Origin: an uncultured bacterium
GTDB lineage: Bacteria > AUK180
Assembly: GCA_937863565.1 (NCBI GenBank)
Contig: CALMGJ010000020.1
Coordinates: 838-64,837 of the forward strand
Direction of reading: 5' to 3'
Length of the DNA: 64,000 bases
Shown here: positions 1 to 17,200 of the stretch, one piece after another
Position numbering within the stretch: position 1 is the first letter of the stretch
Layout: each line of letters begins with the position of its first letter
The notes under the pieces: generated by a model
Databases searched by the model: none
What the model was told of the DNA's origin: nothing
The model's input: only the letters and a program-made list of their open reading frames with translations
Position numbers and translations under genes: made by a program

Positions 1-456
1 ATCCCCCTCGATGAACTCGATAACATATCGCTTCCCGACGAAAAGGAGGGGGAACCGAAAGAGCTTAAACCTTCTGCCGGAATGAAGGATAAAGAACGGT
101 CAAAGGAGGAGATCATACAGAAGTATTTCGAGATCCTTACTGAAGGCAATGAAGATAAAGAAAAAGAATTCATTAAAAGGTACAAAAACGATAAAAAACT
201 CGTCAAGATAATGAAGATCCTGCACTATTATAAACTGGGAAAAGTGAATTTGATCCTGGAGGAGTTCAAGGGACTGGATGTCGCCGCAAACAGTTCATGG
301 ATGCAGAAGATAATCGATGAGATTGAAAGCAAGGGTGCCGATACGGCAGAGAAGATGATGCTCGTTTTCTTCTTCTATGAGGGTATCGGGCAGCACGATA
401 AAGCGGAATTCTATAAAGCAACGCTGTACGACCTGTGGAAGAAGAAAAAACAATAA
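1..456 (+). CDS. hypothetical protein, 5'-partial (frame open to window start; first in-window ATG at 82)
   Basis: ORF 82..456. The same frame has no stop codon back to position 1, so the gene probably starts upstream of the window. Lys/Glu-rich; no recognised domain. Confidence 0.45.
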   Translation: MPLDELDNISLPDEKEGEPKELKPSAGMKDKERSKEEIIQKYFEILTEGNEDKEKEFIKRYKNDKKLVKIMKILHYYKLGKVNLILEEFKGLDVAANSSWMQKIIDEIESKGADTAEKMMLVFFFYEGIGQHDKAEFYKATLYDLWKKKKQ

Positions 457-468
457 AAAGGTACCTTT

Positions 469-1332
469 TTAACTTAAAAACTCATACCATTTCTCCGGAA
501 AACCCATTGAATCAATTTCCGGTTTATATTTCTCTATAAGCACTTTTAGTTTGTTTAACCATTTAATCCAAAAATTATTATCGGGACATAGGTGTTTACA
601 CATCATAATAATTGAGAATATCTTCTGATTATTTATATGCTTCCATTTTTCCTCCTTTTTAGGTTTCATTCCGGTTATAGATAAGAGTCTGTTCCATAAC
701 CTGCTGTGATGAGCACATAAATTTCTTATATATACCAGCGCGTGAAGCCAAGATGTCAATATTGCCTTATCAATCGTATAATTATTTCTTGCGATTTTTT
801 GCTTATCACTACTCTTCAAGAGTTTATATAATATTGATAAATCTCCGAATGACATTGTCTCGATGGCCTTCCATATTGGAAGATACTTTTCATTTTTATG
901 TTTTTTAAAATATTCCTTAACAAATACCTCCCGCGATTTATCTACGGTCTCCTCTAAGCGCTTCATCCACTTCAACGCTAAATCGTTATGAATATAGATG
1001 TTTATATTCGTGTATCCGAATGCACCATATGTGGAAGCAAGATAATAAGCAACTTTCGTTCTAATTGAAATCTCAATTAATTCAATGATATCTAAGAACA
1101 AAAGCCTTAAATTTCTATCGAATTTATATAATCTGAACACATCATCAAATGTTGTTCCTTCAATGAAGATATCCTTCTTTATTTGAAAGGGTATAAAATA
1201 GGCACTCAAACGGTAATAATTCACATTCATTAGAACATGCAGGGCATTTTTTTCATCTTCTACTATTAAACCCCTCTTTTTAAGGAGAAGTATTTGATCT
1301 TCATACGATTTTGCAGACTTAGTGAATTTCAT
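469..1332 (-). CDS. Abi_2 (AbiD/AbiF-like) abortive-infection phage-resistance protein
   Basis: 287-aa ORF. N-terminal region matches the Abi_2 family pattern (..LL..RGL.I.DE..A...L..VNYYRLSAYF.PF). Sits in a ~30% GC islet against ~47% GC elsewhere. Confidence 0.7.
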   Translation of the reverse strand: MKFTKSAKSYEDQILLLKKRGLIVEDEKNALHVLMNVNYYRLSAYFIPFQIKKDIFIEGTTFDDVFRLYKFDRNLRLLFLDIIELIEISIRTKVAYYLASTYGAFGYTNINIYIHNDLALKWMKRLEETVDKSREVFVKEYFKKHKNEKYLPIWKAIETMSFGDLSILYKLLKSSDKQKIARNNYTIDKAILTSWLHALVYIRNLCAHHSRLWNRLLSITGMKPKKEEKWKHINNQKIFSIIMMCKHLCPDNNFWIKWLNKLKVLIEKYKPEIDSMGFPEKWYEFLS

Positions 1333-1341
1333 ATGTCTCAG

Positions 1342-1390
1342 AAAAAAAGAATACCCGCCGGGGTGCGCATCGTTGAGAGGCGTGGCGGGT
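1342..1390 (-). terminator. hairpin (ACCCGCC...GGCGGGT) plus 7-nt T-run on the minus strand, ending 10 nt upstream of the abi ATG
   Basis: Inverted repeat at 1353-1359 / 1384-1390, followed on the minus strand by TTTTTTT (1348-1342). Looks like an intrinsic terminator or attenuator. Confidence 0.35.
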
Positions 1391-1617
1391 ATGTTGGTGT
1401 ATTATAAACAAAAAACAGAAAAATGTCAAATGTTTTTTCGCTCATCTATATTCCTTGTATAACTTTAAGCACTTCCATGCAAAGCAATCGGTCCAAACAA
1501 ATTTCCTTTCATTGTATTTTACTGTATTTTTCCATTTTTATCAAATAATACTTTATATTAAATAGTGTACTGTTATTTCTTGCCATACAAGCATAAATAA
1601 TCTTGATTCAAGAAGCG

Positions 1618-1648
1618 TAAAATGTAAAGACCAGGTACCTTTTCAGGT
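1618..1648. repeat. direct repeat copy A (aatgtaaa..aagaccaggtac.tttt) at the 3' end of the small membrane-protein gene
   Basis: About 24 of 30 positions match copy B at 2067-2098. The two copies bracket ORF 1643..2041. Confidence 0.6.
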
Positions 1649-2041
1649 ACCCTTCTTTCTTAATAGTATCTCTCTCCAGATCAATGCCAATCCGTAACCC
1701 CAAAAGAAGAACGGCGCGGCAATGCTAACGGGAAACAGATCATGAACATAGAACAATGATATTCCGCCTATGGCAACAAGTAACCAGGACAGGATATTGT
1801 TGACAAGTAAGGTTTTAAAAATGAGCTGATTGACCGTAGGGAGTATCAATATAAAAGTAAAAAATGCCGTTTCTTTTGCCGCATAACTGTACATTTTCAA
1901 CCATGATAAGAAGAGAGCGAGCATCAGGCAGAACAAATAGACTATACCGACAAGGACGAGATCCTTGGTCTTTTTCCCGGACATCATCTCTATGAAGGAG
2001 TCATTCTTCAAAATAAAGAATATCCGCTCTTCCTTTTTCAT
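1643..2041 (-). CDS. small multi-pass membrane protein, hypothetical
   Basis: 132 aa with about 4 hydrophobic helices. AT-rich. Flanked by the direct repeats. Confidence 0.45.
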   Translation of the reverse strand: MKKEERIFFILKNDSFIEMMSGKKTKDLVLVGIVYLFCLMLALFLSWLKMYSYAAKETAFFTFILILPTVNQLIFKTLLVNNILSWLLVAIGGISLFYVHDLFPVSIAAPFFFWGYGLALIWREILLRKKGT

Positions 2042-2066
2042 AATATGCTCCCTAACAGCACTCCAT

Positions 2067-2098
2067 CAATGTAAAATATAAAGACCAGGTACTTTTAC
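2067..2098. repeat. direct repeat copy B (caatgtaaaatataaagaccaggtactttt)
   Basis: Matches copy A at 1618-1648. Lies immediately 5' of ORF 1643..2041. Confidence 0.6.
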
Positions 2099-2102
2099 TA
2101 AC

Positions 2103-2199
2103 TCTCAATTCTCAATTGTCAATTCTTCACTTTTCACTGTTCACTCTTCACTGTTCACTGTTCACTTCGTTTCGACCGACTCTCAACTCTCAACTCTTC
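2103..2199. repeat. heptamer tandem-repeat tract: 3x (c/g)tcaatt, 6x t(c/t/g)ttcac, 2x ctcaact
   Basis: Read directly: ctcaattctcaattgtcaatt cttcacttttcactgttcactcttcactgttcactgttcac ... ctcaactctcaact. Lies between the nif3 stop and the start of the small membrane-protein gene. Confidence 0.8.
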
Positions 2200-2951
2200 T
2201 ACAGTCCCGTAGGTATCTCGTAGAATCTGCCTCTGATCCCGAATTTATCCTCGATAAGTTCCTTGAGCTTCAGCAGGCCCTCGCGTTCCGTGCAGTAATG
2301 GCCTCCGAAGAAAAGGTCCATATCGTTCTCCTTGGCATAGTGATAGATATAATGTTTCGCTTCGCCGGTCACGAAAAGATCTATCCCCTCTTTTACCGCA
2401 TCCGTTATCAGGTCTGCGCCTCCACCCGAGATGACGCCTACTTTCCGGATGTTTTTCCCGGATAATTTCATGTAACACCCGGCTTTAAAAAGGGATTTCA
2501 ATTTTTTCTCCGCCTGCGCCGTGCTCATGCCTCTGGGCCATTCCCCCATGAAGCCGATCGTCTGGCCATGGTAATTCCCGAAACCCTTGATGTTCTTGAG
2601 CGAAAGTTTTCTTGCGATCTCTATATTATGGCCCACTTCGGCATTCAGGTCGAGCGGCAGATGAACTCCGTAGAGCGCAAGGCCGCCGTTGAACAGTGTT
2701 TTAAAGCGCTTATAGTTGTATCCCGTGAGCCTGAAAGCCTTCCCCCAGAGGAGACCGTGATGGACGATGATAAAATCATTGCCGTCGGAAGCGGCCTTTT
2801 CAAAAAGCTCCAGGCAGGCATCGACTCCGTAGGCGATCCCGTGCACACGGGCCTCTGTGTCGCCCACCTGCAGACCGTTCTGGGAGTCATCGGAGATCTC
2901 TGCATTTTTTAAGTACCTGTCCAGAAAATCAGCGAGTTTCTTTATCTTCAT
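2199..2951 (-). CDS. Nif3-family dinuclear metal-centre protein (YqfO/YbgI-like)
   Basis: Conserved NGLQVGD...VHHGLLW...HLPLD motifs. Start taken at MKIKK (2951). ATGA overlap with the upstream dppA-like stop. Confidence 0.8.
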   Translation of the reverse strand: MKIKKLADFLDRYLKNAEISDDSQNGLQVGDTEARVHGIAYGVDACLELFEKAASDGNDFIIVHHGLLWGKAFRLTGYNYKRFKTLFNGGLALYGVHLPLDLNAEVGHNIEIARKLSLKNIKGFGNYHGQTIGFMGEWPRGMSTAQAEKKLKSLFKAGCYMKLSGKNIRKVGVISGGGADLITDAVKEGIDLFVTGEAKHYIYHYAKENDMDLFFGGHYCTEREGLLKLKELIEDKFGIRGRFYEIPTGL

Positions 2952-3796
2952 TTTCTCTCCAGTATGTTCCGCGCGGCCATGCAGACATAAACGCATGACA
3001 TCAGCGCATCGTAAAGTTCAAGAGCATCAACCGCTTTGAACATGATGGTCCTCCCTCCCGTTCTTCTGAAACCGGGAATGGATTCGCACATATCGGCCCG
3101 CAGCGTATCAAGGAGCGTCAATTCGAGAATAAAAGGTTTTTTCATCATGAAGGGCTTGACCTTATCAAGGCAGCCGAGACTTTTTTTTGCGGCGCGGAAT
3201 ACAGCACTGCGGACGGCCGCAGGTTCGGCAAGTTTTCCGGCAAACCTCGAAATACCCTTTTTAAGCGACAGGACCTCCGTTCCGAATTCCGAGAAGGTCC
3301 GCGCGCTGTGCTTCTTCAGACCGTCGTCTCCCGTAATAAGGAGCACGGGCACTCCGTAATAACCGGCGAGCAGCGCATTTATCTCGGATTCGCCGCAGAT
3401 ATGTCCGTTCACTTTCGCTTCGAAGATCGCCGATGAAGAATAGGTGTGATCCATGAGGGAATACCCCTCGCCGGCCGGCGCATGATACCCGATAAGGAAA
3501 ACACCGCTATATGTCTTATCGAGGCCATGCATCATATAATATCTCCGCGGGAACCCTCTGATAAGAGCGACGCGGGGACGGGAGAACTCGAAAGGCAGAT
3601 TCTCGCCGAAAGAATGCGAATCGCAGACAAGTATCTCGGTGTAACGGGGAAATCTTTCGGCCACGGCATCTATCACGGCATTTATATCCGCAAGCGCACT
3701 TCTAAGATATTCTTCATTAGTGCGGCCTCCGTCCATTCCCTTCCACGATACGGAGGAACTTACGCCCTCGTAATCGAATGAGATGAAAAATTTCAT
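2948..3796 (-). CDS. dppA: M55-family D-aminopeptidase (DppA-like)
   Basis: 282 aa. N-terminus MKFFISFDYEGV is like B. subtilis DppA (MKLY.S.DMEGI); CDSHS motif. ATGA overlap with the upstream gene. Confidence 0.75.
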   Translation of the reverse strand: MKFFISFDYEGVSSSVSWKGMDGGRTNEEYLRSALADINAVIDAVAERFPRYTEILVCDSHSFGENLPFEFSRPRVALIRGFPRRYYMMHGLDKTYSGVFLIGYHAPAGEGYSLMDHTYSSSAIFEAKVNGHICGESEINALLAGYYGVPVLLITGDDGLKKHSARTFSEFGTEVLSLKKGISRFAGKLAEPAAVRSAVFRAAKKSLGCLDKVKPFMMKKPFILELTLLDTLRADMCESIPGFRRTGGRTIMFKAVDALELYDALMSCVYVCMAARNILERK

Positions 3797-5847
3797 TTTG
3801 CCTCCTTTGAAAGCAGGGCCTTTACTTCCTTGATCTCCTTTATATCCGCAGAAAGCCCGTTGAAATACTCTCTTCCCTCCTTGATCATTCCGAAATAATT
3901 GAAGTATACGGCGATACGCGCATAGATCTTCTCAAGTGTTTCCTTCTTCCCTACTTTTCCGGCAAGTTCAAGATAAAGTTCCAGGCTGTCCTTCGGCCGG
4001 CCTCTTGTGCTGAATAGATATTCAAATACGGGATAGAGTTCGGAATAACCGGGTTTGATGTTAAGATCGTCCTTGATGTCCCGCTCAAGAACATCGAAGA
4101 ACGCGCTCTTCTTCTCAGGCATACCGAGTTCATCATAAAGGCTTACAAGATAATTGTAAACATCCGGGTCCACAGGGTTCTGCCGGAAGTAAGTCTCGAA
4201 CTCTGTCAGCGCTTCCTTCTTCTCCCCTTTTGTAAAATGAACACGACCGCGCAGAAGGTGAAGCTGGACATAATCGGGGGCATGGCTCCCGGCTTTATTG
4301 TAAAATTCCATAGCTTCATCAAGAAGGGCCGGATCCTTTTGAAGCGAGAAGAGGTCCAAACGGAGATTGCCCGAAAAATACAGAGCGATGACGCTCGTGT
4401 ATTTCTTTAAAGAACGCTCGTACAGGGCTCGCGCCTGCTGGAAAGCTTTCATAGCGGAAGTCTCATCCTTTTTGCTTTTCTTCAAAACACCGTACTTCGA
4501 GAACCCTATCGCTTTGGCGAGGTCCCTGTCGGCCGATGTTCGTCTGCTTGAAAGAAAGAAAAAGAATGAAAGGAGCATAATGACGATAAGGGCGGACAGT
4601 GCGGTTATTTTCACTGTTATCCTCGCCTTGAAGCGCTCTTTAATGATCGACATACCTAAGGCAAGTACGAGCTGGAGCAGTATTATCGAGGAGATCCACT
4701 TAAGATTAACGCAGAAGAAATTCCCCGCAAGGAAGCCTGCCAGTCCAGCTCCGAGCGCCGCGATCATCACTTTCCTTCCTCCCCTGATGCCGCTTCTCAG
4801 AAAAAGCGCCAGGAACATGAACAACATGACCAGATACATGCCGAGGCCGAGGAATCCCGAATCGGCCGCCGTCTCCAGATAATCATTGTGCGCATGTATC
4901 GTTTCGGCATTGCTGTGGCCTTCGAACAGAAAGATCCTCTTGCTTTTGTAAGAGGGATAGAATACTCTGAAGTTCCCCGGGCCGACGCCGAAAGGATGGT
5001 CCTTGATGATCTGCATCGTCGAATGCCACGTATAGAGCCTGAACATAGGAGTGCCCGTTCTGATGTCCTTGAGCATCTTGATCCGCGTCCAGTAGTCATG
5101 AGGCACAAGAAGGAGTATCAAAGCGAGCACTGCCGCACCGCCGATCAATACTCTCTTCCCGAGCAGCTTCTCCTTTATCAGGAAAACGGCGAAGAGAACG
5201 AAGAACACGAAAAGCCCGAGGAAAGCGGCGCGTGTTTTCGTAAGGAACATTGCAAATAGATCTGCAGAAAAAACAAGCGCGTGCAGACTTTTACGGAAGA
5301 TGCCGTCAGCGGTAAAGAACCTTCCCGCACTGACAGCAATGACAGGAACGAGGAAACCCGCGAAAAATGTGGAGTTTGCAAAAAATGAAGGTGTTCTCGG
5401 GCTCGGCAGACCGCCGTAAAGATCAAAGATATCGGCACCGTAATAGAGGGCTATTCCGTAGAATGAAGCCGCAAAACCCGATAGTTCGATAGCGTCCAGA
5501 AGAACTTCAGGACTAAACTCCCTCGCGGCAAAATAGAACGCGGCGGAAACGAACATCACCTGAACATATGTGAACGCGAATAACCTGTAAGGGAGTAGCA
5601 GGAACAGAATAATATTCAGTCCGAGAAAGAAGAGCATTATCATATCGGGAAGATACAGTCCGATGCTCCTTTTCCTGAAGAAAACGATGCCGAAGCAAAG
5701 AACGGTGCCCATGAAGAAAACCGTTTCCTTGATCTGATTGATAGTATAAAGGTCCTTTTCAAGAATAAGAAGGGAAAGAACGGCAATTGCAATGAAAATG
5801 ATATTGAAAGCCGGGCTTATGCTTTTTTTCTGAACTTCTCGAGCCAT
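3793..5847 (-). CDS. O-antigen ligase (Wzy_C)-like polytopic membrane protein with C-terminal TPR repeats
   Basis: About 10 TM helices. HAHNDYLETAADSGFLGLG ligase-type motif. C-terminal ~250 aa are TPR-like. Confidence 0.75.
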   Translation of the reverse strand: MAREVQKKSISPAFNIIFIAIAVLSLLILEKDLYTINQIKETVFFMGTVLCFGIVFFRKRSIGLYLPDMIMLFFLGLNIILFLLLPYRLFAFTYVQVMFVSAAFYFAAREFSPEVLLDAIELSGFAASFYGIALYYGADIFDLYGGLPSPRTPSFFANSTFFAGFLVPVIAVSAGRFFTADGIFRKSLHALVFSADLFAMFLTKTRAAFLGLFVFFVLFAVFLIKEKLLGKRVLIGGAAVLALILLLVPHDYWTRIKMLKDIRTGTPMFRLYTWHSTMQIIKDHPFGVGPGNFRVFYPSYKSKRIFLFEGHSNAETIHAHNDYLETAADSGFLGLGMYLVMLFMFLALFLRSGIRGGRKVMIAALGAGLAGFLAGNFFCVNLKWISSIILLQLVLALGMSIIKERFKARITVKITALSALIVIMLLSFFFFLSSRRTSADRDLAKAIGFSKYGVLKKSKKDETSAMKAFQQARALYERSLKKYTSVIALYFSGNLRLDLFSLQKDPALLDEAMEFYNKAGSHAPDYVQLHLLRGRVHFTKGEKKEALTEFETYFRQNPVDPDVYNYLVSLYDELGMPEKKSAFFDVLERDIKDDLNIKPGYSELYPVFEYLFSTRGRPKDSLELYLELAGKVGKKETLEKIYARIAVYFNYFGMIKEGREYFNGLSADIKEIKEVKALLSKEAK

Positions 5848-6641
5848 CTCAGGATCTCATCCTTCTGAGGAGAATAACCTGTGTACTTTATCAGATAAAG
5901 AAAATCGAGTATGTCGAATATCATCTCCTTCCGGTCAATGCTGAACTCTTTTTTCTCAAGCACGCTTTTTATCTCGTCTTTAACGCTGTTCTCGGGGATT
6001 TGATATCTTTCTTTAAGATAATCGTTGAATTCCCCGACGAAATGTTCAAGTACCGTTTCAACGCTATCCTCGGCCTGCGGTTCCCATAAGGCATTGTTCC
6101 TGCCCTGTTCAGGTTCCTTGTGCTCCTCTCCCGGTTTCCTTTTTCTCGAGAGTAAGAATAAAATGAGGAATGACCCGGAAAGCGCAATGAGCAATATGCC
6201 CGGTAAAGAGAATTTCCCCTTGCTCTTCTTAACTGACATTTTCACGGGGTCGGTCCGGATCTCCACGGAGGCATTAGTGGAGGGATCCCGGTAAGGGATG
6301 CTCACTGCAGGGAATATATAATTGCCAGTCTTTAAAGCTTTGAACCGTACCTTGTACGTCGTTACGCTCTGCGTCTGTTCGTTCAGCATCTGAAAACTGT
6401 TCATGCTGGAGAAACCGGATTTCAGCGCCCAATCTAGTTCCGGAAGCTGCGGCGACTGCACCGATACTTCGCGGATGCCCGTTTTCTTTATTTCTATGGT
6501 CAATGTAAAAACATCGCCTACGGAGATCTCCTGCTTATCGATCTCGGATTTCACGTATATCTGGAAAGCCGTTTCCGCGTTAATAGAGCCGGCGGAGATC
6601 ATTATGGTCAATAGAAGGGCAAGACCTGCTTTCATTCTCAT
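5817..6641 (-). CDS. hypothetical secreted/membrane-anchored protein
   Basis: Signal peptide, ~150-aa ectodomain, one TM (ILLIALSGSFLILFLL), ~100-aa cytoplasmic tail. Overlaps both neighbours, so translationally coupled. Confidence 0.5.
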   Translation of the reverse strand: MRMKAGLALLLTIMISAGSINAETAFQIYVKSEIDKQEISVGDVFTLTIEIKKTGIREVSVQSPQLPELDWALKSGFSSMNSFQMLNEQTQSVTTYKVRFKALKTGNYIFPAVSIPYRDPSTNASVEIRTDPVKMSVKKSKGKFSLPGILLIALSGSFLILFLLSRKRKPGEEHKEPEQGRNNALWEPQAEDSVETVLEHFVGEFNDYLKERYQIPENSVKDEIKSVLEKKEFSIDRKEMIFDILDFLYLIKYTGYSPQKDEILRWLEKFRKKA

Positions 6642-7735
6642 TATCTGATCCTCATCATGAAACCGCCCGGGATGTTCTGAGAGGGCGTGTATAAGACCGT
6701 ATCCCCTTCCGAGAGCCCTTCAAGCACTTCAAAGTGAAGAGTATCGCTCTTACCGAGCTTCACTTCCGTTTTTGCCTTTTTACCCTGCATACGGACATAC
6801 GGCCTTCCCTGTTCCCAGAAGACCGCGGCGAGAGGGATTATCAAGACATCCGGCGTTTCAAAAAGCACGATATTGACATTTGCGCTCATCCCCGGTTTGA
6901 TCGCACCGGCGGGATTATCGTTAATGCCTACTTTTACAGTAAACTGATTGAACACGTTCTTGGTCACTGCATTGAGGGAGATGAATATCACCTCGCCGTT
7001 CACTTTCATCTGCGGCATGGCATCAAAAGAGATCTCGCATCTCTGGCCCTGTTTAATGAAGGGTATATCGACCTCATCGACATCGATCATGATCTCGAGT
7101 GTCTTGAGGTCGCCTATATATCCTATGACCGTTCCGGCGGACATATTCTCCATCGCGGATTTTATGAATTCTCCCTCCTCCACCGTTTTCCCGTAGAATG
7201 TTCCGGCAGCGGTCGCCGAAACGGAATAAACGAATTTGCCCGAGAAGGTCCTCTCTTTAACATCTGAAAGGTATTCCATCTCGATCTTCGCGTTCTCGTA
7301 GGCTATTTTCGCGGCAATGTAATTCTTCTCCGTTTCATCGAACTCATTACGGGAGACGAATCCCTTTGGAAGCATGTCCTTGTACGAATCGTATTCATTG
7401 GAGACCGTCTCGAAGTCCTTTTTACTCAATGCATAGTTCTTTTTGATCCCGTTTATTCTTTGTATCTCGCTGATGTCGGGGTAGATGAAGAATATCTCCT
7501 GGCCTTTTTTAACCGACTCCCCTTCGTTCACGACATATCTTGCAAGTTCTCCCGATATCTTCGACATAACCTTAACAACGCTCTTAGGTTGGCATATGCC
7601 GCTTTCCATGACCTTTTTCGAGATCACGCCCTTTTTCACCTGGAACATTCTCTCTTCCGGCGCGGACATCTTTGCCTTTCCTTTTCCGCATGACAAAGCG
7701 AGAAGAAGGATCAAAAAAACAGGGGGTCGTTTCAT
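6641..7735 (-). CDS. efflux-transporter periplasmic adaptor subunit (HlyD/MacA-like membrane fusion protein), lipoprotein
   Basis: Lipobox LALSCG. Biotinyl/lipoyl-like hairpin (ISGELARYVVNEGESVKKGQEIF), coiled-coil segment, beta-barrel domain. No cognate pump gene adjacent. Confidence 0.75.
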   Translation of the reverse strand: MKRPPVFLILLLALSCGKGKAKMSAPEERMFQVKKGVISKKVMESGICQPKSVVKVMSKISGELARYVVNEGESVKKGQEIFFIYPDISEIQRINGIKKNYALSKKDFETVSNEYDSYKDMLPKGFVSRNEFDETEKNYIAAKIAYENAKIEMEYLSDVKERTFSGKFVYSVSATAAGTFYGKTVEEGEFIKSAMENMSAGTVIGYIGDLKTLEIMIDVDEVDIPFIKQGQRCEISFDAMPQMKVNGEVIFISLNAVTKNVFNQFTVKVGINDNPAGAIKPGMSANVNIVLFETPDVLIIPLAAVFWEQGRPYVRMQGKKAKTEVKLGKSDTLHFEVLEGLSEGDTVLYTPSQNIPGGFMMRIR

Positions 7736-7793
7736 TCAAACTCCGTAATGTGTAAATATAACCTTTTTTGAGGAAATTTTCAATACCATCCTT

Positions 7794-8210
7794 TCATTCC
7801 CCAATGATCTTCACCAGGACCCTTTTCCTTCTTTTTCCATCGAACTCGCCGTAGAAGATCTGCTCCCAAGGACCGAGATCAAGAGATCCGCCCGTTATCG
7901 CAATAACGGCTTCCCTGCCCATCACGGTTCGCTTCAGGTGTGCATCGGCATTATCTTCCGCCCTGTTATGCCGGTACTGGGAATATGGTTTCTCGGGAGC
8001 AAGTTTTTCGAGAAATGTCTCAAAATCAGAGAGCAGACCCTGTTCATTGTCATTGATAAAAACGCTTGCGGTTATATGCATGGCATTGACAAGGCAGAGT
8101 CCCTCCGTGATCCCGCTTTGCCGCACGCAATCCTCGATATCCGGCGTAATGTTCACATAATCCCTTCTTTTTGATGTGCAGAACCAAAGTTCCTTCCGGA
8201 AATTTTTCAT
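7794..8210 (-). CDS. yjbQ: YjbQ-family (UPF0047) secondary thiamine-phosphate synthase enzyme
   Basis: 138 aa. The YjbQ fold pattern is conserved over the full length (ITP..E.....G.TEGLC.V...HITA...IN.NE). Confidence 0.8.
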
Positions 8211-8289
8211 ATTCCTCCCTTCTCGCGTAAGCTAAAGGAAATGATACAAAAAACTTGAAAAAAAATCAAAAAAACATTAAAATTCCCTT

Positions 8290-11200
8290 ATGGGAAGAAT
8301 CGACGAACTTCAGGTCTTTTTAAATCGTATTCAAAGCAACATTGCCAAAGATTCGGATTATCTTTCGGCCATGGCCATTCTTGCCAAGGAGGACAATTAC
8401 CCCAAGATACTTTCCCTCGCTCAGAATGGAAGAGCCCTCTTTCCGAATAACGGCATTTTTGATTACTGGTTCTCCCTCTCCAACTACAAAACCGGTAATA
8501 TCGAGATGGCCTTCGATACGATCGTCATCGCGATCGGAAAAACCCCCGAACACAAGGACAGCATTCTGCTGGCGCTTGATCTGGCAAGGATCACTAATGA
8601 AACAGGCAGTCTGATATCTTTCTTTAAGCTTGCCTTGGAACAATTGCCGAATAACCCCGATGTCCTCGAGAAGATAAGGGATTTCTTTGCCAATAATCCG
8701 GAATTGGTGAACGAGAACACCGATCTTCTGATGAAGACATATCTGAACGGCAAAAAAGAGGCCGGCGAGCTTTTATTCGACAAACTGTACTTTGAGAAAG
8801 CGGATGCCCCGGAAGCCCTTGATATATTCATCGAGAATTACGAGAAGAAGAAAAGCGATGAGGATTTCCTGAAATTCCTCGTTCTGGGCATCATTAAGAG
8901 CAGCCGGAAGGACCCCAAGGCGATAAATGCTTTGCGTGAAATATACAAGGCCGGGTTCAAATACAAGGACGTTATAAGTTACCTCGCCGATTTCTTTGCG
9001 TCCAAGGGGGTTTGGGACGATGAATCCCAGATCATCTGTGAAAATGCCGTTGCGTTGAAGATAGCCTCCTTCAACGTGTACAAGTTCCTTGCGCAGAAAT
9101 ATATGATGCTCCAACTCAAGGATGAGGACTCCCTCGAGATCATCTTCGGGTTCTTTGTTCATGAATCTGACAATAAAGATACGATAGCCTATCTCATTCC
9201 GTATATTATTAAAAAGGATAAATTCACGGAAGAGGAACGCGCATTCCTCAAGATCGCGTTCAAACTTTATCCCGAAAATTTCGATATCTTCAAAAAACTC
9301 GTGGAAAACCTCCTTTTCACTCCGGAAGAGGTTATCGACAATCTTTCTCTTCTTCAAAAGTATCTTGAAGAGAACCCCAATTCCGAGAGCGCCATAAGGC
9401 TTCTCGGCAATTCATACCTCAAACTCGGAAGAAGGGATTCTGAAGCCCTTTTCATTTACGAGAACCTCGTCAGGTTTGAACCGGAGAACGAAGAGCTGAT
9501 CCGCATACTCACAGAGTATTATCTCAGCGAGAACAGGAAGAGCAGACTGGCCATCATCATTTATGAGAAAGCTTTCTCGATGGGCATCAAATCGGTCCCT
9601 CTTTACAAACTGCTTTCAGACTACTATATCGAGAAGAACCTCGTCAACAACGACAATATTTCCGTTTTCCAGTTCGTATACGAGGATATCAGACAGGTAA
9701 GGGAGCACTATAGCGAATTTCTCGGACTTTTGCTAGGTTCTATAAAGGAAGGCAAGGTCAAACTTGAAGCTAACGAGTTCTTCTTCGATGTGCTCCGCGA
9801 CATCATCGACATACTCGGCGACGAGAACTACCTGAATGAATTTCTGAAATACGCGGTTGAATTCAAACGGATAGATAACGATTCACTCGCTCTTTACAAG
9901 AAGCTGTACGATAAGAAAAAGGACGACAAGGATTTTATCACACTCCTTTCCGAATGTTATTTCTCACGCAATGTCCTCGATGATACGGGAAGAGAGGTTT
10001 TTGAAAAACTTTTCCCCTCCTTTGAGGGCGATAAGAAACAGAAGGCCATCCTCCTTCTTTCGCAGTTTTATGTGGACAATAAAGTTCGCAATGATTTTTC
10101 TTCGGAGATCATTTCCTGGTCAAATGAACTTGTTTCCAAGGGCATCAAGCACGAGGGTAACCTCGAAAGGATGGTGCAGTTCGCCGTCAAGCACGGGAAA
10201 CAGGACCTTGAAACGCTCGAGCTGCTCACGCATTACCTCGAGATCAATAAGAACAATGCCGCCGTTTACCAGGCCGCAATGAATATAACCATAGCGCAGA
10301 GGATATACGAGAAGAAATACATCGGCATTGCAAAAAGAGCGCTCTCTTTCTACCCTGAATGGCCGGACCTTTTTAATTACTATGCGGTACTTCTCGCAGA
10401 GAACAAAGTGCGCGATGACGATACGTACGCGATATGGGAGAAATACCTGTTGCGGGGAGGAGAGGCGGATGTTATCATCTTCGAACTTCTTTCCTATTAT
10501 ATAAACAACAGAACGATCGACTCGAAAGCCGAGAAGGTCATTAAGATAGCGATATCAAAAGAATACAAGAACGCCCAGATACTGCTTCAGTATGCAAGAT
10601 GCCTTGCCAAAAGCGGGAACTTCACCGAACTTATTAAGGTGCTGGTCGAAGTGATCAATTATGAGATCACCGCAGCGCCTGACGTGAAGTTCATAGCCGA
10701 CAATCTGATGCTTTTTGCCAAATTCGATATTTTGAACAAATTTCTGGACAAATATTCGGAAAAGTCACGCACGATAATGGGTTACAGGATCAGGAATCTT
10801 TTCTATTCTGATCAGCTGGATAAATACGAGAATTATCTCGTGGCCTATGTAAAGAATGCAGAAATGATACCGGAGAACGCCGATGTGTTCGAGATATTCG
10901 GAGATCATTTCTTCTATATTAAAAACGACCCCAGAAAGGCCATGCTGGGTTATGAATATTACCTTAACGTTTACGCCAATGACCCGCTCGTTCTTTATAA
11001 AGCCTCTTTGTGCTCAATAGCCAACGGGGACCTCTACAGCGCGTTAAAATATATAAAAAAACTTCTGCTTTTCAGAGAGAGCGATATCGAAGCGCTTAAG
11101 ATCGCAGCGAACATCCACCTCGAGCTCGGCCAGTATGACGAAGCCGCCCAGCTCTACAAGAAGATCCAAAGCGGCGGATACAATGATTTCCAGATCCTGA

Positions 11201-14200
11201 AGAATTATGCGGAAGCGCTGTTCAAATCCGGCCAGTATTTCTCCGCGGTCGATATTCTGCGTGAAATACTGACGGAGAATCCCGACGATACGGAGATCAT
11301 GCTGAAACTGGCCTATGCATATACGTATATCGATTTCAAGGAGGACGCAATACATACTCTCGAAAGGACGATCGAGCTCGATCCCTTGAACAGGGAGGCT
11401 ATTTTTTCGCTTTTCTCGATCTGCCTTGAAGACCAGCGGTGCGACGCCAAGGCTCAGAGGATCTACGAGATGGTGCTCACACTGGATCCTAAGAACATGG
11501 ACTCGGGTAAGATGCTCTCGCGCATTTATGCCATCAACGGGCGCAATGACGAACGCGCTTTCGCCGTTTATAAATTCTCCTTCTCGTACGGAGAACCACT
11601 TCCCGAGGTCGTGAAGATACTTGCCAACAGGGCTATCGAGAAGAACGCCGACCTCGAAAAGGATTTTGCCATAGAAGTCCTGAAGAACGCGGTGGATTTC
11701 TTCCCGTCGAACACGAAATACTGGTCCACACTAATAGACCTCCTTGTGGGCGAATTCGAACTCGAACAGTATGCCGATTTCTTCGAACGTTCCTTTAAGA
11801 AGGAAATAAGAGTGGCGGACTGCGCAGAAAAGCTTGCCGAGATATTCTTCGAAAGGAAGGATCTGGATAAGGCCCTGTTCTATTCGGTGGCCGCTTTGAA
11901 CCAGAATCCTTACAAGAGCAATATTTACAACCTCATGGGCGAAATATACATCATCAGAGGCGATATGGAAAAGGCGCGTGAAGTGCTGGAAAAGGCCATC
12001 AATTACGAACAGAACGGATTTGCGGCCTATGTGAACTACGCCAATGTGATGTATGAGCTGAAGAACGCTCCCCTTGCGCTCGCCAATCTCGAGAAGGCCC
12101 TGAAAATAAATTCATACTATCTGCCTGCCGTATTGAAATACGCAAGCATCGCAGCGGAGAAGAACGCCGAACTCGAAAAAGCGAAGGAATACCTGCGCTT
12201 CATCAAAGAGATCTATCAGAAGAACTGGAGCATCCCGTACTGGCTTTCCGTGCTCAATAAAAAGCTTGGGGATTATGATATCGCCGTTGCCAATGCCAAA
12301 GAGGCCCTCGAGATAGAGAAGAACGAGGAGATCGTTCTTCTGTACAGCGAGCTTCTATGGGAGAGCGGCAACAGAGAAGATGCGATCAACTTCCTCATGC
12401 CTTACAGGGAGATGAACTCCCCGCGGATATTCACCGCTTTGGGTAAATATTATTTCCAGAAGCAGGATTTCGACAATGCGAAACTCAATTTCGGACAGTC
12501 GATGAGCATCGATCAGAAGGATGTCGATACGCAGATCGAGATGGGCAAGCTGCAGTATTACGTGGACAAGGACATGGAAGCGGCGCAGGTGGCTTTCCAG
12601 AATATCTTCGATTTCGATCCCGAGAACGCCGAAGCGAAAAGATTCCTCGGCAAGATCCATTTTGCACGCAAGCAACTTGACAAATCGTACGAATATTATA
12701 ATCAGGTTCTGGAATTCCTCGATGAAGAGGATCAGAACTACCTCACGATGATCAATTTCCAGAATGAGCGATATGAAGATGTGCTCCAGATCGGGCCTCA
12801 GCTTCTCCGCAAGAATCCGGATAATATCAAGATCCTCTACATTCTTTTCAGAACCTATAAAAAGCTCAACCTTTACGAGCAGGCCATCGCGACCTTCAAT
12901 AAACTTCGCTTAAAATCCTCCGAAGCGGCCCAGGAACTTTTCGGAGAGTTCTTCGCCATACTGCTCGAAACGGGAGATGTGACCGGACTCAGGAAGGAGC
13001 TCATCACTCTCACAAAGGACCCGAAGGTCAAGGGCAACTATTCTGAATATTTCTTCTTTATCGAATACCTGCTCTATCAAACGGATTATAACGAGATCAA
13101 ATATGTGCTGCCGGACGTTCTGAAAGCAAAAGAGGAAACAGCGGATTTCAAAAAGAACAAATCGCTCATGCTCCTCCACATCCTTCTTTTCGAAAATGAC
13201 CTGGCCGCGATCGACAAGTTCATACATTTTTTCAACCGCGCAGACGAAACGATAAAATTCCTGACGGCCATTTTCCAGCATAAAAGCGGCAGACAGGAAA
13301 GTGCGATCATGAATTTCAAGGACACGCATATCTTCTGGGATAAACCTTTCTTTTACAGGTTCCTGAAGCTCTTCAAGGACAGCGGGGCCCTCAAGCATCT
13401 CAAAGAATCTTACAGATTCTCCCTCATCCTCGATATCTTGAGGATCGACGAGGCTTACAGCGACCTCGAAGGATGGATCGAACTTTTCATTTCTTTCGCC
13501 GAGGACCGCCTGGGAGAGAAATTCGCCGATAAGAACATCGACAAGGCGCTGAAGAACCTGCTCGCTCGAATGGAGCGTTACGAGCATATAGAAGGGAAAC
13601 AGCAGGACATCAACACGGACCTCGTACTTCATGTAACGCAGATCTTCAATTTCACCAAGAAGAATTACAAGGAAGCCAAGAAGATATCCCAGAAATACAC
13701 GAAAGACGGTTTGCTCTTCTGCAAAGCATTCTACGAAGAAGCCATGAAAAAGAAGATCGATACGAAGAAACTCCTGCGGGTGATCTCGGAGAACCTGCTC
13801 AAGGAAGAGATCCCGTTCTTCGTTTCCTTCCTTATTCAGCACAATATACCGGAGCTCATCAAGATCAAGATGCTTGACGAGGCGAAAGAACCCCTCGGGG
13901 AAGCTGAGATCGCCATTCTCTTCGATCTGTACAAGACCGGTCTGTTCGAGGATTCCGAATCTCTACGCGAGAAGCTCAAGACTTCGAATTCGTACTATAT
14001 GCGTTATCTCGTGTACAATTCACGCTTCGAAGAGGCTTACGAACTTGTTAAGAAGATGCATTATTTCGAATTCATCTCGCTCGAGAACAGCAAATATATA
14101 ATGGAGGTCCTCCGAATCAACGAGGACTACGATCAGCTCCTCTCCTACAAATTCAGGTTCTTCGAGAAGACCTTCATCGACGATGATTTCCAGCTCTATT

Positions 14201-17200
14201 ATGCGGTTTCTCTTTCAAAGTTCACGCTCGTGGATAATGCTCTCAAGATCTTGAGCTCCGTTAATTACTCCGAAGTGAGCTTTCTAAGCGCCATTGCGTC
14301 CGTCACGGACAATGATCAGGTCCCCGGAGATGCTGTTATAGATTCTTATATAGCATCCTCTCCAAGGCCGGAAGCCGTCTTTGAGCTTGTGAACTTCGCC
14401 AAAGATTACCGGAAAGACGTATTCTTGAAGCACGAGGAGCACCTGCGGGAGATCCTTTCACCGGAGGATTTTGAACTTCTTAAAGGCCGCACGCTGTTCA
14501 TGGAAGGAAAGTACTCTGAAGCAGCAGTATTCCTGAAGAAAAGCGACAGGCCGCAGGATTTCATGTGCGTGAGCTCGTTCCTTACCCCTGAAGAGAATAA
14601 GGCCATCCTGAAGCGTACTCTGTCTTATGTGGAATCAAGGATCGGTTATTTTTCGAAATACGAATCATTCCTCCCCTTCTCCTATAAAGGCATTTTCCTT
14701 CATAAATCCGCAGAGGATCTGCACAGGCTCCGTTATACTCTTTACGGCATCTATTCAGACGGGAGCGAACTCGATCAGCAGCTTCTCGTGGGAGAAGAGA
14801 TCGTCTCTGCCACTCCTGACCAGATGGAGATCTACAGCGGCATCTATTTCATCTATAAGGATTTTAAAAAGGATTACGGAAAAGCCCTGCATATTCTTAA
14901 TAAACTTCTCACCGCGAATCCCGAGGATTCGAAGCTTATCATCGAGAAAGCTAAACTGCTTAATGAGGAAGGCCGCGTCGATTATGCTCTCAATTTCCTC
15001 CTCGCCCAAGAAAAGAAAACGCGCGACATCCTTGCATTCACCGCAGAACTTTATGAGAGCAAGAAGATGTTCATAGATGCTATCGGCATCTATTCCCAGC
15101 TTTATGATATCTACAAGGAGCGCGAGATCTTCGAGAAGATCATTTCTCTTAAATATGATCTGAACCTGTACGCAGACCTGATAGATTCCGTGGGAAAAAG
15201 CGGGTTGAACTCGGATATGCTGTTTTACTATACAGGCATGTCCTTTCATAAGACCGGCGAATACAGAAGATCTAATGAGATGCTCACCAGGGTGAACCCC
15301 GACTTCCAGTTCAAGGATACCGTCAGCATAACGCTCGGGTTGAACAGCTTCAATCTCAAGGAATTCGAGAAGTCAAAGGGCGCTTTCAGCAAGGCCATCC
15401 AAAAGAAGATGAACGAGGATATCGCCTGGGCTAAACTGGCCGAAATACTTTATGCGAACGGTGAAAATGCCAATGCCGCGAAAGCTCTTGAAAAGGCGTT
15501 CAAGGTAGGTATAAATGATCCTACCGTGCATCTTCTCGCCGCGGAACTGTATTTCACGATGAACAAGAAGAGCGAACTCGTTAAAGAACTCCGTTTCCTT
15601 ACAAAGAATCCTCTGCCGGACGAGGCGCAATACCATCTGAGATACGGCAGCGTGCTATACAAGACGGGGAAGAACGACAAAGCTGAAACAGAGTTCCTCA
15701 GGGTACTTGACCTCGAGAATGACAATAGTGAAGCCCTGAAATACTTGACCGAGATATACCTTAAGGAGGAGGCATACCTGAAGTGTCTTCCCATCGTTCA
15801 AAGAGCCTATGAAGAAGACCCCGTCAAGAACGCGCTGTCATATTCGATCGCTCTTTATTCTACGGGCGAATACGCAAAGGCGAAAGAGATCGTTAAGAAC
15901 ATTTCTTCCGACGACGAAACGGTTTATTTGCTCAAAGGGAAACTCTACTATGAACTTAAGTCTTACGAGGAAGCCCAGGCCAGGTTCCAGATCATCCTTT
16001 CCAAGAATCCCAAGAATTTCGAAGCCCAGTTGTATATGGGGAAAGTGTACTCTGCCCAGTTCAAGATTCAGCAGGCCCTTCAGCATCTGAAGATCGCGGA
16101 ATCCCTGAACGAGAACAATTTTGAAGTGCTCAAATTCCTCGGTCTTTGCTACAATAAGCTCAGCGACACCATCAATACGATCATTTTCCTCAGGAAAGCC
16201 CTTACGGTCAAGCCCAACGACCATGAGACCATCGTCGAACTGGCCCAGCTCTACTTCAACAAAAAAAGATATAGAGAGGCTATCAAGGAGTTCAATAAAG
16301 CGATCAATATCAAGTTCAATATCCCGCAGTCCCATTTCCAGCTTGCAAAAGCATACCGAAATGTGGGAGATCTCTCCAATGCGGAAACGGCGATCAAGAA
16401 TGCGCTCGATCTTGACCCGAAGGAAGAGGTTTTTCTCGAGGAGAAGATCAATATCCTCAAGCTCAAGAGCAATTTCTCCGAAATATGCAAAACCCTTGAA
16501 CAATTCGAACAGGGCGGCGGGCCGCTTTCCCCGAAGTTCATGATGCACAAGGTCGAGGGGCTGAGGATGACCAACCGTTTCGATAATGCCCTGACCGAGA
16601 TCGGAAAATACGAGTTCCCCGCACCACTGAAGCGCGATGTAGAGAAGGAAAAAGCCCTGACGCTTTACCAGTTGCAGCGCTATGATGAAGCGCTCGTCAT
16701 CCTTGAAAAGCTCTACAAGGAGATCCCGGAGGATAAGCTGTTCATACCGCTCTGCCTTTCTCATCTCGAGAAGGACAATATCACAAGAGTGAAGCAGATC
16801 CTGAAGGGTTACAAGGGCGAACTGTTCAAGAGCGAGATCATCCCGTACATTCTCGGCTATATCGAGAAAAAAGAGGGCAATAAGGAGATCGCTCTCAATT
16901 ATTTCTATCAGGCGATCACCGTCAATAAAGGATTCGTCCGGGCATACCGGGAACTTTCTGAGATCTACTTCAAGAACCGCAACTATATAATGGCTGCGGA
17001 CATCATACACAATGCGCTGAAGTACGAAAAAGTGAAAAAGATGGATTTCTTCTACTACCTGGGCATCTGCTATATGAACCTGAACGAATACCCGAAGGCA
17101 TTGAAATACATGAAAGAGGCGCTGGCCTGGGATTATCAGGATTCCGGCCACTACATCTCCCAGATATACAAGAAGCTCGGATTGTGGGGATTCGCCCTTA

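Follow-up and report, generated by a model that had tools for sequence, protein, structure and literature searches.

A probable, very compact AbiF toxin–antitoxin module with an upstream abiF RNA motif in an AT-rich islet of an uncultured bacterium

The window analysed here, a stretch of 64,000 nucleotides from an uncultured bacterium, carries near its left end an AT-rich islet (457-2198). Two minus-strand genes lie in it, abiF (469..1332) and a 132-aa membrane ORF (1643..2041), and the neighbours of the islet are NIF3, an M55 peptidase and a TPR protein. The GC content of the islet is 0.343, as against 0.469 for positions 2199-64000, and it is the minimum among all 1742-nt windows of the 64 kb, about 5 standard deviations under the mean of 0.466 (sd 0.023); beyond the first 3 kb, the lowest value of any such window is 0.417. 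Within the islet, abiF (0.314) and the spacer at 1333-1642 (0.332) have the lowest GC, and the membrane ORF reaches 0.40. Codon usage departs from the host in the same genes: the synonymous-codon score is -0.163 for abiF and -0.074 for the membrane ORF, compared with 0.113 ± 0.034 for 23 host ORFs, 0.114 for the ORF ending at position 456 and 0.141 for NIF3. The first-pass annotation had described an AT-rich islet at 460-2200 with a GC content well below that of the rest, and had placed an Abi_2 gene in it as a candidate foreign locus; composition, codon usage and the family matches given below agree with this.

Low GC alone does not date the acquisition, because in 80% of 60 loci examined AbiF has a higher AT content than the DNA that flanks it. 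No tRNA gene was found within 29 kb of the islet, no recombinase in the flanks examined, and no other defence gene within about 17 kb rightward of it. AbiF, the membrane ORF and the left ORF are all singletons in clustering at 90% identity, and a scan of genome contigs for syntenic relatives with NIF3 returned nothing but a Flavobacteriales locus, which is unrelated and 27% identical.

The product of abiF, noted at first from the letters as a 287-aa Abi_2 protein, is a predicted HEPN ribonuclease toxin of the Abi_2/AbiD/F family. It matches Pfam Abi_2 (PF07751) with an E-value of 3.3e-57 and 194.2 bits over profile positions 1-184 of 184, the curated cut-off being 25.6 bits. The PADLOC check that had been proposed for the locus returned AbiD (E 1.2e-85, 285.6 bits), and PHROG 2158 was matched with an E-value of 3.5e-68. 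With phmmer, residues 3-283 align to residues 7-294 of PDB 8vz6_A, an 'Abi family protein' (PbAbiF), at an E-value of 1.6e-33. The HEPN motif is intact (RNLCAH, residues 203-208, that is, R203-x4-H208), and its RNLCAHH aligns to RNSCCHH of 8VZ6. In an alignment of 35 AbiF homologues R203, N204 and H208 are invariant, and all 27 invariant columns of this alignment are present in the window protein. The ribosome-binding site of abiF is weak (GAGA).

High mobility marks the AbiF family, relatives of which occur on 408 plasmid records and 80 viral contigs. The nearest relatives have at most 63% identity and are spread over Calescamantes, Phycisphaerae, Omnitrophica and Legionella.

An RNA element stands between a promoter and the abiF start codon. 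The predicted sigma-70-type promoter (1401..1429, minus strand) is TTGACA-17 nt-TATAAT, with 12 of 12 consensus matches, although the sigma-70 consensus may not be that of the host; from promoter to abiF ATG there are about 100 nt. Downstream of it, at 1353..1389 on the minus strand, lies the abiF RNA motif (Rfam RF03085), which scores 55.2 bits (E 6.8e-9, model positions 1-37 of 37) against a gathering threshold of 37 bits, and ends 20 nt ahead of the abiF ATG on the same strand. It is composed of a 6-bp outer stem (CCCGCC/GGCGGG), a 3-bp inner stem and the conserved loop CUCUCAACGAU. This match is the only one in the 64 kb; a second motif, of the kind found in RCd22, was sought at E-values up to 10, with none in positions 1-3000 or in the whole window. 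Immediately 3´ of the motif stem follows a U-tract, AUUCUUUUUUUC (1341..1352, minus strand), and since the tract directly abuts the stem, the two together resemble an intrinsic terminator or attenuator.

The predicted antitoxin would thus be an AbiFr-like ncRNA of about 50 nt (1342..1395, minus strand), with ends placed from the promoter position and the U-tract: the start site at A1394/1395 and the 3´ end at the end of the tract. Its fold, in which the outer stem lengthens to 9 bp, has a free energy of -18.9 kcal/mol (z -3.2). The order of promoter, ncRNA, terminator and toxin gene is therefore present at the sequence level. The first-pass reading had missed this RNA element, and the main text of PMC5737381 does not mention the abiF motif.

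The arrangement is shared by relatives of the locus. A covariance model built in this analysis, which gives the window motif 62.4 bits, the upper end of the range for the family, places the motif just upstream of AbiF and on the same strand at 55 of the 77 metagenomic loci and 45 of the 81 viral ones (100/158), with a median gap to AbiF of 25-34 nt (20 nt in the window). About one third of the related loci have no motif match by this model, and some family members may therefore work without the RNA or with a diverged one. Compensatory changes occur at 9 of 9 motif base pairs among 63 distinct relatives, in an alignment fitted to the model, and a U-tract stands 3´ of the motif in 67 of 79 distinct related copies. 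Seven divergent copies agree without exception at CGCCUCU, AUGCG and neighbouring motif positions. The layout of promoter, motif, U-tract, Shine–Dalgarno sequence and ATG is fixed across 8 divergent AbiF loci, with a TTGAC -35 and a TATAAT-like -10 kept at constant spacing.

The membrane ORF lies upstream of this unit. As described at first, it encodes a four-helix protein of 132 aa: four long helices are predicted, and no family match was found in Pfam, PADLOC, PHROG or NCBIfam, the best PHROG score being no better than E 0.68. It is an ORFan. A search of 5.8e9 proteins retrieved only the protein itself, among 1.84e9 representatives HMMER found a single weak match, to a transmembrane repeat, a scan of viral contigs was negative, and no relative was present among the ORFs of 164 AbiF loci. 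The structure model has a pLDDT of 61 and a pTM of 0.33, values too low for a fold search. The gene comes with a ribosome-binding site of its own, AGGGAG at 6 nt from the start codon, and, just after its stop codon, with a terminator hairpin (-19.1 kcal/mol, z -3.5). A holin was rejected for want of a PHROG, Pfam or NCBIfam match, and a host-like origin, considered for its GC3 of 0.53, was overturned by the synonymous-codon score, which is atypical for the host. The membrane ORF is cargo of the islet unrelated to AbiF, to which no link was found.

The junctions of the islet are marked by repeats. At the left one, a 16-nt perfect palindrome, AAAAAGGTACCTTTTT (455..470), with a weak predicted hairpin, spans two convergent stop codons. 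The membrane ORF is bracketed by a 26-nt direct repeat in two copies identical at 24 of 26 positions. The left copy, GTAAAATRTAAAGACCAGGTACYTTT (1617..1642, plus strand), forms the 3´ half of the hairpin past the membrane ORF stop, and the right copy (2071..2096, plus strand) is unstructured and lies 30 nt upstream of the membrane ORF ATG. AGGTACYTTT occurs in the window only at 459, 1633 and 2087 (0.09 expected), which are all three junctions. The right edge of the islet is occupied by three abutting heptamer arrays, TCTCAAT x3.4, TTCACTG x5.9 and ACTCTCA x2.7 (2103..2197), the only ones in the 64 kb. The 18-mer core of the 26-nt repeat has a single match in viral contigs, in L167, which is compatible with chance.

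To the left of the islet, the ORF ending at 456 (1..456, plus strand) has no stop codon back to position 1, so that the window edge cuts a larger gene, of which the C-terminal 151 codons are left, and not one for a 124-aa protein. The product, a TPR, single-TM and acidic-linker protein, shares 65% amino-acid identity with the C-terminal part of a protein of 751 aa in L165, a Calescamantes locus. A protein search with the fragment gave no matches, a viral-contig scan was negative, and the one homologue known came to light by chance, in L002/L165. From this homology the left ORF is the predicted C-terminus of a host TPR/membrane protein of about 750 aa, outside the defence module. It had been put forward as a possible defence component, which its host-like codon score, its TPR-protein homology and the lack of any PADLOC or Pfam defence match do not support.

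In L165 a related AbiF adjoins the same flanking gene, inside an AT-rich defence island where its neighbours are Dcm-Vsr and GmrSD/HEC-05. Nucleotide homology between the window and L165 spans exactly promoter to stop (1434-465), and it breaks at the palindrome, at 465 on one side and at 449 on the other. That AbiF stands beside the same TPR-membrane-protein gene in the window and in a Calescamantes genome points to a hot spot for defence islands in that group, L165 being one distant comparison and the only comparable locus. One TGTTCACTGT lies downstream of the TPR gene in L165, and a connection between it and the TTCACTG array was considered but dropped as too weak, being post hoc and in the opposite orientation.

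Taken together, the protein family, the catalytic motif, the homology to 8VZ6, the RNA motif above the Rfam threshold and the layout conserved in relatives make it very likely that positions ~465-1434 constitute a self-contained AbiF type III toxin–antitoxin or abortive-infection module. A role in phage defence by abortive infection, argued from analogy, would belong to this reading as a whole. The first-pass annotation held that Abi_2 proteins usually stand alone; the RF03085 element at 1353..1389 on the minus strand indicates an RNA partner, since the abiF RNA has been identified as the antitoxin of AbiF (PMC12373285; PMC12737573; PMC13064643). Judged from the sequence, it is this small RNA just upstream, and not the neighbouring membrane protein, that is the likely partner of AbiF.

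The mechanism proposed takes transcription, termination, RNA–protein binding, toxicity and phage trigger from published AbiF work. A strong constitutive promoter (1429..1401, minus strand) would transcribe an RNA of about 50 nt with the abiF motif (1389..1353) as its core. The GC-rich outer stem of the motif and the U-tract would act as a terminator, so that most transcripts would end there and accumulate as the small RNA, and a minority would read through into abiF (1332..469) and be translated from its weak ribosome-binding site. The 287-aa AbiF, a HEPN RNase, would dimerise, and binding of the small RNA would block the R203/H208 active site, allowing the cell to survive. Phage infection or loss of the locus would halt replenishment of the RNA or displace it; the AbiF thus freed would cut cellular RNA, leading to growth arrest and an aborted infection.

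Other readings of the same locus differ in the part given to the RNA, to the setting and to the membrane gene. It is distinctly unlikely that AbiF is a single-protein Abi system whose motif does no more than limit abiF transcription in cis, as a leader or attenuator. The motif stem and U-tract do look like a plain terminator, PADLOC models AbiD as one gene, and a riboswitch-like cis role is discussed in PMC12373285. However, the loop and bulge, unchanged across the 7 divergent copies, are far more conserved than a terminator requires, and direct RNA–protein binding with trans rescue is reported for two homologues (PMC12373285; PMC12737573, PDB 8VZ6), one of which is homologous to the window protein over its full length. 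The logic of a type III toxin–antitoxin system suits post-segregational stabilisation equally well, and the module might mainly be an addiction or stabilisation element of the variable-island hot spot by the TPR gene and contribute little or nothing to phage defence. Anti-phage activity is unproven even for C. difficile AbiF (PMC12373285), and the L165 AbiF, adjoining the same flanking gene, lies inside a larger island. This reading is unlikely, though it retains some weight, given that lactococcal AbiD, AbiD1 and AbiF are experimentally anti-phage (PMC13064643) and that the L165 neighbours are themselves defence genes.

Type VI-B CRISPR systems offer examples of a HEPN nuclease accompanied by a small membrane partner. 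The first-pass annotation had suggested the membrane protein as an effector or immunity partner of AbiF, and by analogy with Cas13b and Csx27/Csx28 the two might form a two-gene system, as they lie on the same strand, 310 bp apart, in one AT-rich islet. This is very improbable: the membrane ORF is an ORFan without a homologue in the 164 AbiF loci, and small multi-TM ORFs are not enriched upstream of AbiF (12/99, against 8/99 downstream). In addition, there is a hairpin past the stop codon of the membrane ORF, and abiF is preceded by a promoter of its own. Homology to L165, the nearest AbiF locus, begins only at that promoter, and the membrane ORF is bracketed by its own direct repeat. A variant of this idea, hardly more than a conjecture, would make the membrane gene a 454-bp mobile mini-cassette in which slippage of the heptamer arrays sets the expression of a protein that modulates or executes the AbiF arrest. 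It is drawn from adjacency, the 26-nt direct repeats, the AGGTACYTTT at every islet junction and the heptamer arrays and, if true, it would constitute a lineage-specific pairing of a HEPN protein with a membrane effector. The weak ribosome-binding site, the strongly non-host codon usage and the absence of mobility genes nearby could also be those of an inactive relic, a decaying foreign gene, but the ORF is intact and of full length with 27 of 27 family-invariant residues, the promoter is a perfect consensus and the RNA motif reaches the upper end of the scores in the family, so that decay is most improbable.

With the AbiF–RNA module as the preferred reading, the filing of Abi_2/AbiD matches as single-gene defence systems appears as a common annotation error: a 37-nt RNA, invisible to protein-based tools such as PADLOC and DefenseFinder, is part of the functional unit. 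AbiF has been proposed as the ancestor of Cas13. A compact family member from an uncultured lineage, with one motif and its own stem as terminator, is mildly useful to work on this ancestry, as it bears on the minimum size of the RNA partner. Beyond the RNA partner and the hot spot, the finding is an ordinary one.

Among known systems, Cas13b with Csx27/Csx28 (type VI-B) resembles the islet in having a HEPN RNase beside a small multi-helix membrane protein, but the window has no CRISPR array, no membrane-ORF homology and no conserved co-occurrence. The type III systems ToxIN and AbiQ share with the locus the promoter, RNA antitoxin, terminator and endoribonuclease toxin, whereas the ToxN/AbiQ fold is unrelated to HEPN and the antitoxin consists of tandem repeats processed by the toxin, in place of the single hairpin motif without repeats seen here. 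[quoted passage not shown] The lactococcal AbiD/F group is described as two-component, a protein with an upstream RNA, and it is for its members that reduced phage propagation at the expense of the infected cell has been shown (PMC13064643). These systems are plasmid-borne in Firmicutes, while the window locus is chromosomal in a 47%-GC bacterium with its nearest relatives in uncultured lineages.

For PbAbiF–AbiFr of a Prevotellaceae bacterium (8VZ6), a cryo-EM structure of the protein–ncRNA complex and an assignment to type III toxin–antitoxin systems have been published (Zilberzwige-Tal et al. 2025, summarised in PMC12737573 and PMC13064643). The two systems are alike in full-length protein homology, in an R-x4-H that aligns to the catalytic R210/H215 and in a single cis-encoded ncRNA upstream. 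The homology is distant, its E-value of 1.6e-33 being weaker than the 1e-59 to 1e-103 of metagenomic AbiF relatives, and the likeness of the RNA runs through the Rfam model, not AbiFr itself.

AbiF(Cd)–RCd22 of the C. difficile phi027 prophage has a promoter, an ncRNA with abiF motifs, a terminator and read-through (PMC12373285). RCd22 RNA binds the AbiF toxin directly and neutralises it in cis and in trans, and toxicity requires R202/H207 (PMC12373285). The window has the same predicted order of sigma-A/sigma-70 promoter, RF03085 ncRNA, terminator and abiF, which implies read-through, and RN-x-CAH is common to both proteins. The C. difficile gene sits in a prophage lysis module between holin and endolysin; the window has no prophage context, with no holin match upstream and no holin, endolysin or other phage gene beside abiF. 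RCd22 fits two abiF motifs plus a separate terminator into about 100-130 nt, against one motif whose own stem would serve as terminator in about 50 nt, and because there is one motif copy and no separate terminator, stoichiometry and regulation may differ from those of RCd22. The locus is a divergent, very compact member of the known AbiF system.

The AT-rich gene at 469-1332 (minus strand) encodes a full-length Abi_2 protein (Pfam, E 3.3e-57) that also matches PADLOC AbiD (1.2e-85) and PHROG 2158, "abortive infection resistance protein" (3.5e-68). These matches bear out the identity proposed in the first-pass annotation, and both of the ORFs named there, the Abi_2 gene and the membrane ORF, are present as described. 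Relatives of the protein number 3897 at E below 1e-10, and even the nearest share just 56-63% identity with it; these derive from metagenomes and MAGs labelled Calescamantes, Phycisphaerae, Omnitrophica and Legionella. It aligns across its full length with 8vz6_A, an AbiF of known structure (E 1.6e-33), with its RNLCAHH paired with RNSCCHH. Residues R203, N204 and H208 show no variation across 35 homologues.

The abiF gene is part of a promoter-RNA-toxin module. Abi_2 proteins had been described as usually stand-alone, which overlooked a likely RNA partner: the Rfam abiF RNA (RF03085) spans 1353-1389 (minus strand) as a complete 37-position match, scoring 55.2 bits where the gathering threshold is 37. 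It was the one significant match in a scan of both strands of 1-3000, and the 64 kb contains no second match to this family. Upstream on the same strand, TTGACA (-35, 1429-1424) and TATAAT (-10, 1406-1401), separated by a 17-nt spacer, agree with the consensus promoter at 12/12 positions. The motif, CCCGCCACGCCUCUCAACGAUGCGCACCCCGGCGGGU, starts 11 nt past TATAAT and is followed by AUUCUUUUUUUC, next by UGAGACAU and then by the abiF AUG at 1332. The minimum-energy fold of this region (-18.9 kcal/mol, z -3.2) reproduces the Rfam structure and lengthens its outer stem to 9 bp, with a U-tract directly after, so the hairpin would double as a terminator-like element. A small RNA of ~50 nt (about 1395-1342) is predicted.

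The conservation of this layout was analysed in 160 related AbiF loci, using a covariance model built from seven Rfam-level matches and run against all of them. Where a locus includes enough upstream sequence, a coding-strand copy of the motif was found no more than 200 nt ahead of AbiF in 55/77 metagenomic and 45/81 viral cases; the median gap is 25-34 nt, and there are almost no matches elsewhere in the loci. Compensatory changes occur at all nine base pairs, and 99.5% of the alignment cells are paired versus about 42% when partners are slid, figures that lean towards structure because the alignment was fitted to the covariance model. In eight divergent upstream regions, an invariant TTGAC -35, a TATAAT-like -10, the motif, the U-tract, a ribosome-binding site and the ATG follow one another at fixed spacing, and 67/79 distinct motif copies have a U-tract after them. 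Additional motif matches downstream of the AbiF gene in three related loci (L021, 3874-3931, minus strand; L071, 4141-4180; L009, 3249-3302) probably stand ahead of another abiF copy close by, arranged in tandem or convergently; such neighbouring copies have been reported (PMC12373285). In another locus, L014, four tRNA genes lie immediately downstream of AbiF (3878-4222), with a Guanidine-II riboswitch match beyond them (6398-6440).

The AT-rich stretch noticed at first pass is well defined. Sliding-window GC is 0.30-0.37 from ~460 to 2100 and 0.46-0.55 past 2200, and no other kilobase across the 64 kb falls below 0.415. Block 457-2198 has a GC of 0.343 versus 0.469 in the remainder, the minimum among all 1742-nt windows (mean 0.466, sd 0.023), with uneven composition inside (abiF 0.314, spacer 1333-1642 0.332, membrane ORF 0.401). 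Codon usage was scored on synonymous codons after training on 23 long ORFs from the window: host genes reach 0.113 +/- 0.034, versus -0.163 for abiF and -0.074 for the membrane ORF, and the flanking genes resemble the host set (left ORF 0.114, NIF3 0.141, M55 peptidase 0.164). GC and codon scores together therefore place the islet between two stop codons, the one at 456 and that of NIF3 at 2199. As to horizontal acquisition, 80% of 60 loci have an AbiF gene with more A+T than the DNA on either side (mean difference, 5.9 points), so low GC is a family trait and not proof of recent acquisition. At 90% identity the products of abiF, the membrane ORF and the left ORF are singletons, and a search for NIF3 relatives found none.

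The islet edges carry unusual repeats. A 26-nt direct repeat (1617-1642 and 2071-2096; 24/26 identical) encloses the membrane ORF and its ribosome-binding site as a 454-bp unit. The sequence AGGTACYTTT has three sites only in the window (0.09 expected by chance), at 459, 1633 and 2087, which are the three module junctions; at 455-470 it belongs to a perfect 16-nt palindrome across both convergent stop codons. The window's sole heptamer arrays are three abutting tracts at 2103-2197 (TCTCAAT x3.4, TTCACTG x5.9, ACTCTCA x2.7); they coincide exactly with the GC transition and lie between NIF3 and the right repeat. Possible explanations for the repeats, the 10-mer sites and the arrays are scars left by insertion, att-like junctions or a regulatory tract prone to slippage, and these features account for part of the remaining interest of the locus. 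On a viral contig, L167, CTGGACTAAAGACCAGGT occurs twice in tandem (13585-13630), one copy being an 18-nt match to the 26-nt repeat core, probably by chance.

The first-pass annotation had put forward the membrane protein and the left ORF as candidate defence components, noting that defence genes often cluster. The membrane ORF (1643-2041, minus strand) found only itself among 5.8 billion proteins, and an exhaustive HMMER search of 1.84 billion representatives added one weak match, 30% over 42 residues at E 4.6e-7, to a repetitive TM protein. It has no match in Pfam, PADLOC, PHROG or NCBIfam and no relative among all ORFs from 164 AbiF loci. Small multi-TM ORFs in general show no enrichment ahead of AbiF genes (12/99 upstream versus 8/99 downstream). 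A single-sequence structure model gives four long helices at low confidence (pLDDT 61). With AGGGAG 6 nt ahead of its ATG, a stable hairpin beginning at its stop codon (-19.1 kcal/mol, z -3.5) and AbiF's own promoter 210 bp beyond, it looks like a separate gene; nothing was found that ties it to AbiF, and the proposed partnership is not supported.

To the right lie NIF3, M55 peptidase, Wzy_C/TPR, BatD-like and HlyD-like proteins and a 3133-aa TPR protein, among which there is no meaningful PADLOC match; the window shows no defence cluster, with no further defence gene over some 17 kb on this side, and no tRNA lies closer than 29 kb. As listed, the NIF3 ORF shares 49 nt with the M55 gene (2948-2996); its Pfam match begins at residue 16 (MKIKK...), so the true start is probably the ATG at 2951, directly past the M55 stop, which would imply tight operon coupling. 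The 3133-aa ORF (8290-17691) is nearly all TPR repeats, matching 26 TPR-type Pfam families, and its PADLOC "PrimPol" match is weak, with no matched stretch above threshold alone. A 27-nt tandem repeat, GGATAAGAAAGGGCTTCATCCGGAAAC, occupies 37461-37540 (2.2 perfect copies, 3 copies at 87%).

Over its 151 codons the left ORF, open back to position 1, shares 65% identity with the C-terminal end of a 751-aa protein encoded on L165, a Calescamantes-type contig. This homologue carries TPR-like repeats in its N-terminal part, a single TM helix, a long linker rich in acidic residues and lysine, and a conserved domain at the C-terminus. It has no PADLOC match, and the window copy has a host-like codon score. 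The first-pass observation is confirmed and its interpretation supported in part: a defence-family Abi_2 gene does lie in an AT-rich islet, but neither the membrane ORF nor the left ORF is supported as a component.

The same contig holds the closest named AbiF (P0006, 63%), convergent with the left-ORF homologue as in the window. When 20 kb of L165 was compared with the 64-kb window, two segments only were common: promoter, RNA and abiF (window 1434-465, 66% nucleotide identity) and the TPR gene C-terminus (window 449-100, 70%); the islet-edge repeats, junction 10-mer and heptamer arrays are absent from L165. There, flanked by the left-ORF homologue, 2524-14079 forms an AT-rich defence island of about 11.5 kb (GC 0.32-0.35 versus 0.42-0.49 in the flanks). 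Its genes are those for a HATPase_c_3 protein, Dcm methylase with Vsr, a PD-(D/E)XK/Cas4-like protein, AbiF with its RNA, two unknown products and a GmrSD/HEC-05 nuclease. Dcm-Vsr and the PD-(D/E)XK protein, among others, are encoded upstream, and three genes, one of them for the GmrSD/HEC-05 nuclease, separate AbiF from the TPR gene. The L165 AbiF gene call begins too late, at 10001 (264 aa): the in-frame ATG at 9938 (MKFNKPAKS...), 17 nt past the abiF motif and U-tract, aligns to the window AbiF N-terminus, giving a gene at 9938-10795. Read most simply, these data point to a site for defence islands 3' of the TPR host gene in related bacteria, where AbiF would have resided long enough to diverge about as far as the flanking gene. 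A possible hot spot shared with Calescamantes genomes is a further part of the remaining interest.

In C. difficile, the AbiF ncRNA RCd22 is made from a SigA promoter, with most transcripts ending ahead of abiF; it represses abiF in cis and neutralises the toxin in trans, binding it directly, and toxicity requires R202 and H207 of the RNQCAH motif (PMC12373285). According to reviews, cryo-EM of Prevotellaceae PbAbiF (PDB 8VZ6) revealed a HEPN dimer in which each monomer binds one ncRNA that blocks the active site; AbiF is assigned there as a type III toxin-antitoxin and proposed as the ancestor of Cas13 (PMC12737573; PMC13064643). On the basis of this published mechanism, the 8vz6_A match and the invariant R203, N204 and H208, a toxin-antitoxin model was adopted. 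The arrangement of the parts is seen in the sequence itself; transcription, binding, toxicity and a phage trigger at the window locus are proposed by analogy with the published homologues. A constitutive promoter would yield an abundant, terminated antitoxin RNA, with abiF reached by rare read-through; toxin and RNA would form an inert complex, from which infection would release HEPN RNase activity, leading to growth arrest.

In comparison with C. difficile, where RCd22 comprises two RF03085 motifs and AbiF carries RNQCAH (R202/H207), the window locus has one motif and RNLCAH (R203/H208). It is a divergent, very compact new example of the known AbiF/abiF-RNA type III toxin-antitoxin abortive-infection family.
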